Source: Longimicrobiales bacterium (GTDB taxonomy: Bacteria > Gemmatimonadota > Gemmatimonadetes > Longimicrobiales > Gaopeijiaceae). Taken from it: a stretch of 64,000 bases of DNA. The notes under the pieces are model-generated. The model ran no database searches, was not told the DNA's origin, and saw nothing but the letters and a program-made list of their open reading frames with translations. The DNA is taken from assembly GCA_965219445.1 (NCBI GenBank), contig CBDCNQ010000005.1, positions 640,001 through 704,000 of the forward strand. The letters run 5' to 3'. A program made the translations under genes and the position numbers. Positions 13,503 to 17,153 of the stretch are shown here, in pieces; positions within the stretch are counted from its first letter, which is position 1; every line of letters begins with the position of its first letter.

Positions 13503-14207
13503 GTGCGTACAGCTCTCCTTTCAGCCGCCACCGGTCTCCGGTCCTTGGATCAAGGGCCGTCAGGTAGTCCCTGCCCTGGCGCGGCACCTCCAGGCCCGCC
13601 TCCTGCAAGGCTGCGACGACATCGGCCTGGTTCTGTACGGTGCCGTGCTCGACACGCTGGAGCAGGTAGTCCCGGATCAGGTCGCGGGGGGAGGGCTCGA
13701 GCGCGAGGCCGGCCCGCAGCTGGGCCGCCTCGACATATGCGCGGTGCCCGGGTTGCTGCACCCGTGCCCGCGCCGGGTCATCCGGCCGGCTCCAGCCGTG
13801 TGCGGCGTTGAAGGCGTCGCGCAGCGGACCGAACGTCTTCTGCCAGCCCGGCGGCGCGATGTTGAGGCTCCGGCCGGTCTCGAGGTCGCAATCCGCCAAC
13901 GAAGACCCCGGCCAAGGACCTAGTGACGTCGCCGGCGCGACCGCCAAGCGGCATCAATTGGTCGCGGGAAAAGTATACCCTCTGGCGTTATAGTTCGGCG
14001 CCTTGCCGTCACGAGGGGAGGGGCCCTAGCCTGTGCTGCCGAGCTAGGATCAAAGGCATCATAGGGGCATGGCGACCGCTACCGGTACCGATCAGCAGCG
14101 AAGCAGCCCGAAGACGAAGAGGCGTTCTCCTCCGGGAACGGGTGCGCGTTCATCATTATTCGCGCAAGCAAGCAACCCAACCCGTCCTACCCAAGAGGAG
14201 GATGCCC

Positions 14208-15263
14208 ATGGAGAGGTATATCGGACTCGACGCACACGCGTCGAGCTGCACGCTGGGGATTGTAGGCCCCAGCGGCAAGCGCTTGGGCTCGCAGGTGGTG
14301 GAGACGAACGCGCGGGCGCTGATCGAGGTGCTGCGAGGGATTCCGAGGAACCGGCACTTATGCCTGGAAGAAGGGACGCTGTCGGGGTGGCTGTACGAGG
14401 TGCTGAAGCCGCACGTGGAGGAGCTGACGGTGGCGGGGGTCGGCAAGAGCCGGGGCCCGAAGACCGACAAGCTGGACGCGTTTGCCCTGGCGGAGAAGCT
14501 GCGGATCGGATCACTGGAGACGACGGTCTACAAGAACCGGGGCCAGTTCAGGCGGCTGGGGGAACGGGCGAAGAGCTACGACTTCTTGGTCGGCGACACG
14601 GTGCGGGTGAAGAACCGGCTCAAGAGCGTGCTGCGCTCGAGAGGAGTGGCCTACGGCGCGGGGCGCTCGGTCTACTTAAAGCGCGACCGGGAGGAGTGGT
14701 TGGCCAAGCTGCCGGAAGCGAGCAGGACGACGGCCGGGTTGCTGTACGAGGAGCACGACGCACTCGTGGCATTGAGGGCGAAGGCCGAGAAGGCGTTGCT
14801 GGCGGAAGCACGCAAGCATCGAGAGTGGCATGTGCTGAAGACGTGCCCGGGTCTGGGTCCGATCCGGACGGCGGAGCTCCTGCCGGTGGTGGTGACGCCG
14901 TACCGGTTCCAGAGCCGGAGCAGGTTCTGGGCGTACTGCGGACTGGGCGTCGTGATGCGGAGCTCGTCGGACTGGGTGCGGGGTCCGGGTGGGCGGTGGG
15001 TAAGGGAACCGGTACAGCAGACGCGGGGGCTGAATCGGAACTTCAACCACACGCTGAAGCGTGTGTTCAAGGGCGCAGCGACGACGGTGATCGGTCGGGC
15101 CGAGGACGAGCCCTTGTACCGCCACTACGAGCGACTCCTGGAGGGGGGCACGAAGCCGAATCTGGCGAAGCTGACGATCGCGCGTCAGCTCGCCTCGATC
15201 GTGCTAGCGGTGTGGCGCACGGGCGAAGCGTACGACCCCAAGAGACTGGAAGCGACGGAGTAA
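14208..15263 (+). CDS. IS110 family DEDD recombinase/transposase
   Basis: YIGLDAH, CLEEG, KTDKLDA (DEDD), PGLGP HhH, YCGL...SS; GAGGAGG RBS. Confidence 0.93.
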   Translation: MERYIGLDAHASSCTLGIVGPSGKRLGSQVVETNARALIEVLRGIPRNRHLCLEEGTLSGWLYEVLKPHVEELTVAGVGKSRGPKTDKLDAFALAEKLRIGSLETTVYKNRGQFRRLGERAKSYDFLVGDTVRVKNRLKSVLRSRGVAYGAGRSVYLKRDREEWLAKLPEASRTTAGLLYEEHDALVALRAKAEKALLAEARKHREWHVLKTCPGLGPIRTAELLPVVVTPYRFQSRSRFWAYCGLGVVMRSSSDWVRGPGGRWVREPVQQTRGLNRNFNHTLKRVFKGAATTVIGRAEDEPLYRHYERLLEGGTKPNLAKLTIARQLASIVLAVWRTGEAYDPKRLEATE

Positions 15264-15340
15264 ACCGGCCTGGGATCGGCGAGCGTGGGGTCGAAAGCGG
15301 TCACAACATGGGGTCCGACGAAACGGAAGCGAACCGGTTA

Positions 15341-15475
15341 CAGGGGACAGCATCCATACACACCGTGGGCCGGGGCAGAGAGCCCAAGCCCCCACTCAAA
15401 GGCTATGCACCCCTGGAGAGCCGAACGAAGCGATGGGCCACAGAGTCCCAGATAGAAGGATGGTTCCCGCTCCAG
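15341..15475 (+). ncRNA. Predicted bridge/seek RNA core (target- and donor-binding loops)
   Basis: Internal-loop hairpins carry TACACACC (15357-64), TCAAAGG (15396-402) and ATAGAAGG (15452-59), matching target and donor junction. Confidence 0.75.
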
Positions 15476-15748
15476 AGCGGAGAACGCGACGGCTGTGAAC
15501 GTCTTCCGGACTGCGATGCGGACCCTGCGAGCGCACCCCTCCCCACCCTGAGTCGTCGACCGGGCAATCCAAACCATGCGGACGCCGACGGTCAAAAAAT
15601 GAGCCGACGGCGCGTGGGGAAGGTGCGTCTTGACCGCCAGCCCCATAGAAGGGTGTGTAAAAAAAGAGGCGACGTACCTTTCCGCTAGGTAGTAAGAAGT
15701 TAACCAGCGAATCCCGGGTGAGCGCCCGGGGGAAAGGAACGATGCCTC

Positions 15749-16993
15749 GTGAGGAAGAATATGGTGGGACCCGAGAGTGAGTCCAGCACGCCGACGTGGG
15801 AGTGCTTGGAAGCGCTGGTTCGTGAGAAGGCCCAGGAGATGGTCCAGCGGATTCTGGAGGAGGAAGTGACGGAGTTGCTCGGCCGGGAGAAGTCGGAGCG
15901 GAAGACGGTCGTAGACCCGGCGCCAGGCTACCGCAACGGCTACGGCAAGGCTCGGCGGCTGGCGATGAGCTCGGGCACGATCATGCTCCGACGGCCCCGG
16001 GTTCGAGGCATTGAGGAGCGGTTCGAGAGTCGGGTGTTGCCGTTGTTCGCACGACGGACGAAGGAGGTGGGTGCTCTGCTTCCGGAGCTGTATCTGCACG
16101 GGCTGGCGGAGGGAGACTTCGAGCTGGCGATGCGGGGCCTGCTGGGCGAGGGGGCCCCGTTGTCGAAGTCTTCGATTTGGCGGCTGCGGGCGGGATGGAC
16201 AAGGAAATTCGAGGAATGGTCGAAGCGCTCGCTGGCCGACCGTGAGGTCGTCTACGTCTGGGCGGACGGGATCTACGTGAAGGCGGGGCTCGAGCGGGAC
16301 AAGGCAGCGCTGCTGGTGGTTCTCGGTGCGATGCGAGATGGTACGAAGGAGGTGTTGGCCCTGAGATCGGGCTACCGAGAGTCGGTCGAGTCCTGGTCCG
16401 AGGTGTTGCGGGATCTGAAGGCACGCGGCATCGAGGCGCCCCGGCTTTTGATGGCGGACGGCAACGCGGCGATCTGGGGCGCAGTACGGCAGGTATGGCC
16501 TGAGGCGGGCGAGCAACGGTGCTGGAACCACAAGATGAGGAACGTGCTGGACCGGCTGCCTCAGCGGGAGCAGAGCGAGGCGAAGGACCTTCTCAGGACC
16601 GTGGTCTACGCACCGAGGCGGTCCGAGGCGCTGAAGGCCCGTGAGGCGTTCGCCAGGCGCTACAGACCGTGGTATCCGAAGGCGGTGGATGTACTCGAGG
16701 ACGACTGGGAGCGGATGGTGGCGTTCTACGACTTCCCCGAGGACCACTGGAAGCATCTACGCACGACGAACGTGGTCGAGAGCCCCTTTGCCGCAGTACG
16801 GCTCAGGACAACGGCGGCGAAGCGCTTCAAGCGGGTCGAGAGCGCTACGGCGCTGATCTGGAAGCTGCTCTTGGTGGCGGAGAAGCGCTTCAGAAGGCTC
16901 GACGCTCCTCACCTCCTCAAGGACGTATTTGAAGGAAGAAAGTTCGAAGACGGAAAGCCCGTCTCAACCCAACAGCGGAAAAACGCCGCCTGA
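15749..16993 (+). CDS. IS256 family transposase
   Basis: YRNGY, YVWADGIY, MADGN, QRCWNHK, RTTNVVES. Confidence 0.95.
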   Translation: MRKNMVGPESESSTPTWECLEALVREKAQEMVQRILEEEVTELLGREKSERKTVVDPAPGYRNGYGKARRLAMSSGTIMLRRPRVRGIEERFESRVLPLFARRTKEVGALLPELYLHGLAEGDFELAMRGLLGEGAPLSKSSIWRLRAGWTRKFEEWSKRSLADREVVYVWADGIYVKAGLERDKAALLVVLGAMRDGTKEVLALRSGYRESVESWSEVLRDLKARGIEAPRLLMADGNAAIWGAVRQVWPEAGEQRCWNHKMRNVLDRLPQREQSEAKDLLRTVVYAPRRSEALKAREAFARRYRPWYPKAVDVLEDDWERMVAFYDFPEDHWKHLRTTNVVESPFAAVRLRTTAAKRFKRVESATALIWKLLLVAEKRFRRLDAPHLLKDVFEGRKFEDGKPVSTQQRKNAA

Positions 16994-17153
16994 AACATTT
17001 ACACACCTATTGACCCAACCTCTTTCTCGTCATAGATGAAATCTCGTGACGAGCTGTGTCTCATGCCATGAAAAAAAACGGTGCCTGTCGGTCACGGCGA
17101 GCGCTCCTCCATTCCTCGTGATCTGCCTCGAAGGCAGCGGCGATCACGAGCGC

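Follow-up and report, generated by a model that had tools for sequence, protein, structure and literature searches.

The DNA analysed here, a stretch of 64,000 nucleotides from a Longimicrobiales bacterium (the window, to which all plain coordinates refer), holds an IS110-family insertion sequence that interrupts the left terminal inverted repeat of an IS256-family element. The non-coding region 3' of the recombinase gene of the inserted element folds into a predicted RNA, the loops of which match the two flanks of the insertion site and one end of the element itself. From the comparative evidence below, and by analogy with known systems, we put at roughly 0.85 the probability that this predicted 3' RNA directs the DEDD recombinase of the element to the sequence TCAAA-GG-GTGTGTA in the IS256 left repeat. 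The features of the locus are as follows.

14041..14056, plus strand: outer 16 bp of the IS256-family left inverted repeat, GAGCTAGGATCAAAGG, which precedes 21 of the 22 full-length copies of the IS110-family element in the same genome
14050-14056, plus strand: left target arm with the core, TCAAAGG, flanking the element on its left
14057..15652, plus strand: IS110-family element of IS1111-type layout, 1596 bp, with the same ends in the 22 full-length copies
14057..14074, plus strand: left end, with CATCAT as the predicted -10 box of a junction promoter and the left subterminal inverted repeat ATAGGGGCATGGCG at 14061-14074
14202..15263, plus strand: recombinase gene, 353 amino acids, Pfam DEDD_Tnp_IS110 and Transposase_20, both above cut-off
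15334..15486, plus strand: conserved structured block of about 150 nt, the predicted bridge/seek RNA, with approximate ends, conserved in an alignment of 63 sequences
15630..15652, plus strand: right end, with the predicted -35 box TTGACC at 15630-15635 and the right subterminal repeat CGCCAGCCCCAT at 15635-15646
15645-15652, plus strand: left donor arm and core, ATAGAAGG, the eight bases that close the right end
15653..17022, plus strand: remainder of the IS256-family element, with the right target arm GTGTGTA at 15653-15659 and the right repeat ending at 17022
15749-16993, plus strand: IS256 transposase gene, Pfam Transposase_mut (PF00872) at E 8e-59 and NCBIfam IS256 model NF033543 at 295 bits (cut-off 150)

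The insertion lies 16 bp inside the left tip of the IS256 element, in the order GAGCTAGGATCAAAGG, inserted element, GTGTGTAAAAAAAGAGG. The target site is TCAAA-GG-GTGTGTA (14-nt site TCAAAGGGTGTGTA; target sequence GGATCAAAGGGTGTGTAA), and its GG core is found at both element junctions. The left and right repeats of the IS256 element have GAG..GG.TCAA..GGTGTGTAA in common. The genome that contains the window (4.56 Mb in five contigs; below, the own genome) carries 22 full-length copies of the 14057-15652 element at 98.2-100% identity, and in seven of these copies target-site duplications of 8-9 bp flank the whole unit from left tip to right repeat, which fixes the boundaries of the IS256 element. 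Insertion is specific in both site and orientation, 19 of the 22 copies standing at one base and in one orientation in the IS256 left repeat.

The recombinase scores above the cut-off of two Pfam families, PF01548 (DEDD_Tnp_IS110; 39.7 bits, cut-off 29), which covers the N-terminal RuvC-like DEDD domain, and PF02371 (Transposase_20; 32.4 bits, cut-off 21.3), which covers the C-terminal domain with the conserved serine. An alignment of 17 homologs shows no variation at D10, E56/E57, D89, D92 and S255. Searched against solved structures, a profile of this alignment finds the IS621 transposase (8wt6) at E 5.6e-12 and the ISCro4 transposase (9t56) at E 2e-10; a PDB search with the single sequence gave no match at E <= 0.01, IS621 being reached by the profile only. 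The DEDD residues and the catalytic serine align with those of IS621, S255 taking the place of the serine in its SG motif, and the motif around this serine is RSSS, not SG. Five of the 22 own-genome copies are without the C at 15236, a frameshift of the last ~9 recombinase codons, and were matched only over residues 1-347 or 2-347.

In its layout, the element has 389 nt of non-coding sequence downstream of the recombinase gene (15264-15652) versus 145 nt upstream (14057-14201). A long non-coding region 3' of the transposase gene is the layout of the IS1111 group (PMC11187229; PMC11208160). The subterminal repeats of the window element (ATAGGGGCATGGCG versus ATGGGGCTGGCG) agree at 12 bases when two 1-nt gaps are allowed, with at most 5 bases in an exact run; because of these gaps the repeat is missed by an ungapped inverted-repeat finder, among the 25 longest repeats of which it is absent. 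Sister clades have exact runs of 9-10, the criterion for the IS1111 subgroup being 7-17 bp, and the repeat varies jointly at both element ends between clades.

A scan of genome contigs and another of metagenome contigs turned up relatives, 26-99% identical, at 136 loci. A motif pipeline located the homologous non-coding segment in the window and in 81 of these loci, many of the others being cut by contig ends, and 63 distinct homologous sequences, the window included, make up the alignment used below (A1). Most of the named records among the homologs are genomes assembled from metagenomes and belong to Longimicrobiales, other Gemmatimonadota and Acidobacteriota. A genome of the same genus (G005; for example loci L014-L038) has 15 copies that are 40% identical, and these were excluded, the motif patterns having mislocated their target loop. 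The G005 copies have a donor loop of the ATAGAACC type, and the sequence past their pattern-called end is nearly the same in the ten that were compared; either this relative also lies in a repeat or the end was called too early. In the window, the parts of the predicted RNA are as follows.

15341..15353, plus strand: 5' strand of the target-loop outer stem, CAGGGG at 15341-15346 and GCAU at 15350-15353, pairing with 15405-15415
15357..15364, plus strand: right target guide UACACACC, the complement of top-strand GGTGTGTA, which comprises the second core G and the right arm
15367..15391, plus strand: target-loop inner stem-loop, GGGC (15367-15370) with GCCC (15388-15391), 87% paired, with changes on both sides in 6 of 7 pairs
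15395..15402, plus strand: left target guide (C)UCAAAGG, which repeats the top strand of the left arm and the GG core
15405..15415, plus strand: 3' strand of the target-loop outer stem, AUGC at 15405-15408 and CCCCUG at 15410-15415
15423..15426, plus strand: 5' strand of the donor-loop outer stem, GAAC, pairing with GUUC at 15463-15466, 87.7% paired
15435..15448, plus strand: donor-loop inner stem-loop, GGGC (15435-15438) with GUCC (15445-15448), 95.2% paired
15452..15459, plus strand: left donor guide AUAGAAGG, the same eight bases as those that end the element
15460..15467, plus strand: candidate right donor guide AUGGUUCC, a hypothesis only, overlapping the 3' strand of the outer stem
15467..15480, plus strand: third hairpin, CCGC (15467-15470) with GCGG (15477-15480), 90.9% paired, with changes on both sides in two pairs

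Over the alignment, the six-helix structure is paired in 92.2% of 1804 cells versus 85.7% in shuffles, and 15 of its 29 pairs change on both sides; in a control in which the partners were slid by 1-3 columns, only 28-50% remained paired. In the RNAalifold analysis of the 63 sequences, the outer stem CAGGGG/CCCCUG shows compensatory exchange at three pairs (AU 37 / GC 25, GC 52 / AU 6 and GC 42 / AU 18), GCAU/AUGC is invariant and GAAC/GUUC has one compensatory event, G-C to C-G, in five sequences of one clade. The donor inner-stem pair 126/148 occurs as GU (26), CG (20) and GC (17). The first stem-loop is also the minimum-free-energy fold in both the 151-nt and the 389-nt stretches. Only one column of 15272-15652 varies among the 22 own-genome copies, eight of which have an extra A after 15416, versus 36 variable columns in the rest of the element. 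An earlier reading made from the letters of the window (the sequence-only reading) had drawn the same outer stems, and these hold across the homologs. The inner stems that it drew are possible in the window sequence but not the ones that the homologs favor: GUGGG/CCCAC is 64% paired versus 87% for the GGGC/GCCC register, two bases shifted, and UGGG/CCCA is 75% paired versus 95% for the GGGC/GUCC register, one base shifted.

The agreement between loop and flank begins in the window itself. The right target guide UACACACC is the exact reverse complement of 15652-15659, and TACACACC occurs three times on both strands of the 64 kb (shuffle mean 0.54), namely in the loop (15357-15364), at the insertion site (15652-15659, minus strand) and in the IS256 right repeat (17000-17007). 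TCAAAGG occurs four times in the window, including the left flank (14050-14056) and the loop (15396-15402), against 5.08 occurrences expected, and is by itself not a rare 7-mer. We would take as the stronger argument the sharp edges of the diagonals between guide and flank columns and the number of different guide sequences among the homologs. Columns 84-91 of the alignment, just before CUAUGC, equal left-flank positions -8 to -1 in 29/40, 38/41, 38/41, 36/41, 38/42, 42/42, 42/42 and 37/42 sequences, respectively, and the next two columns 5', 82-83, match at background level (11/38 and 12/40). The left flank varies at six of these eight positions, -3 being always A and -1 always G.

Counted by pairs, the left target guide agrees with its flank at 6.79/8 (33 pairs) versus 4.73 when shuffled, a level that none of 5000 shuffles reached. 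For the right target guide, 55 distinct guide-flank pairs give 6.51/9 versus 4.46 shuffled (standard deviation 0.17, maximum 5.09), a value again reached in 0 of 5000 shuffles; three registers were allowed in this test, and a fixed-register version, which gave 4.31/9, under-counts because the loop is one base shorter in the lineage of the window. All of these statistics overstate the independence of the pairs, because the shuffles ignore relatedness and many homologs have one target type. Examples of right target guide and flank in the homologs are GCAAAACAA, GAGACACTT, GGAAGAGAG and GCGTTTCTA.

The sequence-only reading had matched the guides of the first loop to both target arms and had proposed that the loops of homologs be compared with their insertion sites. 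The strings that it quoted all lie where it had placed them, both matches stand, and in the homologs the loops change with the target (the 55 and 33 distinct pairs above) rather than being invariant. It had also drawn attention to the right-arm guide lying 5' of the left-arm guide. The order is correct but not unusual: in IS1111-family seekRNAs the complement of the top strand lies 5' and that of the bottom strand 3', the reverse of IS110/IS621 (PMC11187229), and since the order here is the published one, it is no peculiarity of the window element.

Two groups of homologs deserve separate mention. The target type ..GGATAGG / AAATCCAAC.. is found in L050, L061, L099, L114, L119, L124 and many others, a large part of the homologs, with the guides AUUGGAUUUC and GGAUAGG. 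L047, a 95% identical relative with its RNA at about 2630-2789, has the altered guides AUACGCACC and UCACUAGG; its left flank, GAGGTTGGGTCAATAGG, resembles an IS256 right repeat, and its right flank is not IS256. L047 looks retargeted to the other IS256 end.

The second loop carries a match to the right end of the element. ATAGAAGG is present in the window only in this loop (15452-15459) and as the last eight bases of the element (15645-15652), 0.63 occurrences being expected. Alignment columns 154-161 equal right-end positions -8 to -1 in 46-52 of 52 sequences, in agreement with the match to the own right end that the sequence-only reading had noticed in the window, and the match ends at eight. 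Over 11 pairs the agreement is 7.36/8 versus 6.49 when shuffled, with 0 of 5000 shuffles as high, and three variant forms, ATAGGAGG, ATGGAAGG and ATAGAACC, are present at both places with one exception, L101.

For the other half of the donor, the sequence-only reading had suggested a partial guide, ACGAAGCG, matching at 5 of 8 positions. This suggestion is not supported, as the stretch is invariant and pairs poorly with GG+CATCAT, there and in two neighboring registers, in all homologs; the count of 5/8 is arithmetically correct, but by a binomial estimate the chance of at least 5/8 is ~0.03 per position, with about a dozen positions available. The stretch that ends at the donor inner stem, where symmetry would place the guide, has no match to CATCAT, and in a mutual-information analysis of RNA columns versus element ends the clade signal dominates and no right donor guide was revealed. 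As a hypothesis only, AUGGUUCC at 15460-15467 could serve as the right donor guide. It pairs with GG+CATCAT at 7 of 8 positions in the window (six Watson-Crick and one G-T), pairing at these seven is seen in each of the 42 homologs for which the left end is mapped, and its core positions are complementary in 46/52 and 49/52 sequences, with CC changing to GG in the clade that has a CC core. These columns are also explained by the GAAC/GUUC stem, and CC changed to GG only once. Pairing of the right donor guide is discontiguous even in IS621, and many IS1111 elements have their donor-binding bases in a multi-loop (PMC11208160).

The same observations bear on another account of the second loop, in which only the first loop guides. 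There, the first loop would read the flanking target, the recombinase would recognize the donor ends through the subterminal inverted repeats, a division of roles that has been proposed for IS1111-type seekRNAs, and the second stem-loop, AUAGAAGG included, would be a scaffold for protein binding or processing. Such an account would sit well with the lack of a right donor guide in the symmetric position and with the joint change of the subterminal repeats at both ends between clades, and it has a precedent in ISEc11, for which an 82-nt RNA with the target loop alone sufficed, at 42% transposition, from a donor that was required to be flanked by target (PMC11187229). A scaffold would not be expected, however, to reproduce the right end in 46-52 of 52 sequences and to break off at exactly eight bases, nor to show three variant forms that change in both places, nor to be followed by two bases that are complementary to the core and switch with it; moreover, donor-binding nucleotides have been reported in IS1111 bridge RNAs (Durrant et al., PMC11208160). 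We regard guidance by the first loop alone as unlikely and retain the two-loop RNA as our reading.

Occupancy in the own genome provides a second line of evidence for targeting of the IS256 end. Nineteen of the 22 full copies lie between both halves of the IS256 left repeat, two have the left half only (rearranged) and one is elsewhere. Wherever an IS256 left-repeat tip has the wild-type left half (23 cases), the element comes next, and the five empty left repeats are all changed inside the 14-nt site, each in a different way (TCAGAAGG, TCGAAGG, TCAAGG, TCAGAGG and GTGAGTA). The approximately 30 IS256 right repeats (TCAATAGGTGTGTA, two left-arm mismatches) are never occupied. The genome thus amounts to a natural specificity experiment, with wild-type sites filled and sites with one mismatch or a 1-nt insertion or deletion empty, which suggests a low tolerance for single mismatches between guide and target. 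The empty repeats are at C4:199262, C4:1221680, C5:267938, C5:483712 and C5:635832 of the own genome (G000; contig and position). Three of the five (TCAGAAGG, TCGAAGG and TCAGAGG) have a G in the A-run, which brings the left arm closer to ATAGAAGG, the right end of the element; the changes may be escape mutations or excision scars, which are indistinguishable here.

The pattern might also be produced by hitch-hiking, in which the element entered IS256 once, the composite spread by IS256 transposition and the loop matches are incidental. All insertions do lie within one element family, and the duplications of 8-9 bp around the composite in seven copies are equally expected from transposition of the composite. 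But host and insert distances are uncoupled, which argues for independent insertions: 11 of the 16 host IS256 bodies compared are identical and carry inserts that differ at up to 31 positions, and one host is 154 positions away from that of the window with an insert that differs at one. Further, the base of insertion is shared by at least three divergent IS256 types, and the same site is used in other genomes and by a 70%-identical relative (L108 and L109, at 69-70% protein identity, have the same guides, and L109 lies in the same IS256 site). Guides also track flanks in homologs with unrelated targets. We regard hitch-hiking as very improbable.

Least probable of all is the view that the matches are DNA repeats without RNA function, left by sequence capture or by past recombination between end and target: the left target (LT, ATCAAAGG) does resemble the left donor (LD, ATAGAAGG), end repeats can arise by partial duplication and tandem partial copies exist (C5:1611142), but inverted and direct copies of adjoining target halves occupy opposite strands of a loop with covarying stems, this geometry is kept with different sequences in dozens of homologs, and the region is the least variable part of the element.

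How the RNA would be made and used can be outlined from the element ends and from known relatives. When the ends are abutted, the spacing from TTGA[CT]N to CAT[CT]AT is exactly 17 nt in every distinct end pair (38 of 38). By analogy with IS621, ISEc11 and their relatives, the element would excise as a circle, and its joined ends would form a promoter, TTGACC - 17 nt - CATCAT, from which the RNA would be transcribed, probably together with the recombinase mRNA, before being trimmed and bound by the recombinase. The first loop would then pair with both strands of the IS256 repeat and the second with the circle junction, at least with the bottom strand of ATAGAAGG, and strand exchange would occur at the shared GG. 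A circle-junction joint was not seen in the contigs of run X2, an assembled form of the data that drops rare forms. One metagenome run has contigs with an intact wild-type IS256 left repeat, which confirms the sequence of the empty site.

A number of observations weigh against the RNA-guided reading. First, the recombinase scores 112.2 bits with the NCBIfam IS110 model NF033542, below the cut-off of 140, although over a full-length match (6-342), and it is at most 27% identical to IS110-family transposases annotated on plasmids; we read the score as that of a divergent IS110 member, not of a non-member. Second, the sequence is GC-rich and its fold energies are no better than those of shuffles (z -0.95 for 151 nt and -1.18 for 389 nt), and no Rfam family was found, cmscan at E <= 1 over 13900-15800 giving one chance match to an unrelated family, so that the single sequence is no proof of structure. 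Third, a scan of the linear element for sigma-70-like promoters found none, and an RNA run (n = 1, share 0.06) has no coverage of 15264-15652; what it contains is one 286-nt contig on 14291-14576, with six differences, from the recombinase gene of a relative, and it is uninformative on the guide RNA. Fourth, many homologs share the target type GGATAGG/AAATCCAAC, free wild-type sites exist in the community, and one own-genome copy lies at a non-IS256 site, where the right arm matches only one base out of register. Finally, no right donor guide is identifiable where symmetry with the target loop predicts one, and the second loop may be dispensable here, as the target loop alone sufficed in ISEc11. 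Set against these points, the covariation of guides with flanks and of stem partners with each other, together with the occupancy of the own genome, supports RNA-guided targeting of the IS256 end, and the central claim of the sequence-only reading, a bispecific (predicted) RNA and an IS110 recombinase aimed at that end, is upheld.

IS1111 seekRNAs are 3'-encoded, transposase-bound and programmable (Siddiquee et al. 2024, PMC11187229), and bridge RNAs have been predicted in the right end of 93% of IS1111 elements (PMC11208160). The window element resembles the seekRNA elements ISEc11, ISKpn4, ISPa11 and ISPst6 (PMC11187229) in several respects. Its RNA lies in a long non-coding region 3' of the transposase gene; the guide complementary to the top strand is 5' of the one complementary to the bottom strand, the two matches overlapping in the target; the block of ~150 nt is near the "long" form of 145-170 nt; and the element has subterminal inverted repeats and, by prediction, a promoter formed from the joined ends. 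It differs from the IS1111 members with seekRNAs in its divergent recombinase, in which GLG[IV]VMRSSS replaces G--P----S(T)G, in its short and gapped subterminal repeat, in having an IS256 inverted repeat as target, in the clear covarying left-donor match of its second loop, and in that its RNA is a prediction only. On balance, by analogy with these systems, the 14057-15652 element and its RNA, the expression of which is predicted, very probably work as an IS1111-type seekRNA or bridge RNA system.

With the IS621 bridge RNA (Durrant et al. 2024, PMC11208160), the predicted RNA shares two internal loops, one for both strands of the target and one for the donor, left guides in the sense of the top strand with a right target guide that is its complement, and a shared core dinucleotide (GG here) within the pairings; the DEDD and serine residues of the recombinases align as well. 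Unlike that of IS621, the window RNA lies 3' rather than 5', its loop has the guides in the opposite order, only one core base falls under the right target guide, and the opposite strand of the donor loop has no recognizable right donor guide. The IS621 bridge RNA is reportedly also the subject of Hiraizumi et al. 2024.

IS4321 and IS5075 are said to insert into the inverted repeats that terminate transposons of the Tn21 family. Like them, the window element is of the IS110/IS1111 family and occupies, in one orientation, a fixed position in the terminal inverted repeat of another element. Unlike theirs, its host is an IS256 element of uncultured Longimicrobiales, only the left repeat is used, and the guide RNA is directly readable. 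No IS1111-type insertion into an IS256 inverted repeat was found in the literature, in a search of titles and the first parts of abstracts in which other IS-family targets were not sought more widely.

What the locus contributes is a divergent clade, a new natural target and a clean comparative set; it adds no new principle and leaves the known mechanism unchanged. The clade is environmentally widespread (Gemmatimonadota, Acidobacteriota and other metagenome-assembled genomes) and extends the RNA-guided IS110/IS1111 recombinases. The comparative set, more than 60 distinct RNAs whose natural targets differ and whose flanks are mapped, defines the fold and the guide lengths, about 8-9 nt per target arm and 8 nt for the left donor arm. 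For tool development, the locus offers one more pair of recombinase and (predicted) RNA, with a GG core. In biological terms, one insertion sequence here systematically interrupts the end of another, and the insertion may limit IS256 activity in the lineage. A more adventurous view, which we think doubtful, is that of an RNA-guided hyperparasite in an arms race with IS256, from which escape variants are free, its donor guides AUAGAAGG-AUGGUUCC being adjacent on one strand, unlike those of IS621. On this view, it has filled every wild-type IS256 left end of the genome, and the ends still free are escape variants with single changes under the guides.

Several further features of the own genome were observed. 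The copy at a non-IS256 site (C2:336726-338315) is flanked by GCAGACTCAAAGG and TGTGACGC; its left flank agrees with nine of nine loop bases (ACUCAAAGG), against seven at IS256, and its right arm pairs only one base out of register (GGTGTG). A second non-IS256 sequence, GGGATCAAAGGGTGTGCCC at C1:205759 (minus strand), matches the left arm at 7/7 and the right arm at the first 5 of 7 and is unoccupied. A solitary fragment at C5:1023349-1023423, 93% identical to 15410-15482 and without a recombinase gene alongside, comes after ..GACACAGTAGGCTATGC, which is the 3' half of a target loop that bears a different guide, and is probably a remnant of a related element. At C5:1611142-1613245, a full element runs directly into the final 511 bp of a second copy; the join, ..ATAGAAGG/GGGGCACGAAGC, falls inside the gene. 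L042 has a similar tandem partial copy with a different internal point, and the junctions do not match the guides.

Just upstream of and at the start of the recombinase gene, 14138-14216 falls into two haplotype groups of about 11 copies each, distinguished by a 6-bp insertion or deletion at 14180-14185 and linked substitutions; the 3' non-coding region is the same in both. Around the IS256 copy of the window, 14033-14040 and 17023-17030 show no matching target duplication. Its right flank, TTTCTCGT, matches the left flank of the own-genome copy at C4:326794, and flanks are likewise swapped in the pairs C2:416897/467799, C2:522578/615556 and C3:152163/162174, which points to copies that were inverted or exchanged, or else to joins made in assembly at the 3-kb repeat.

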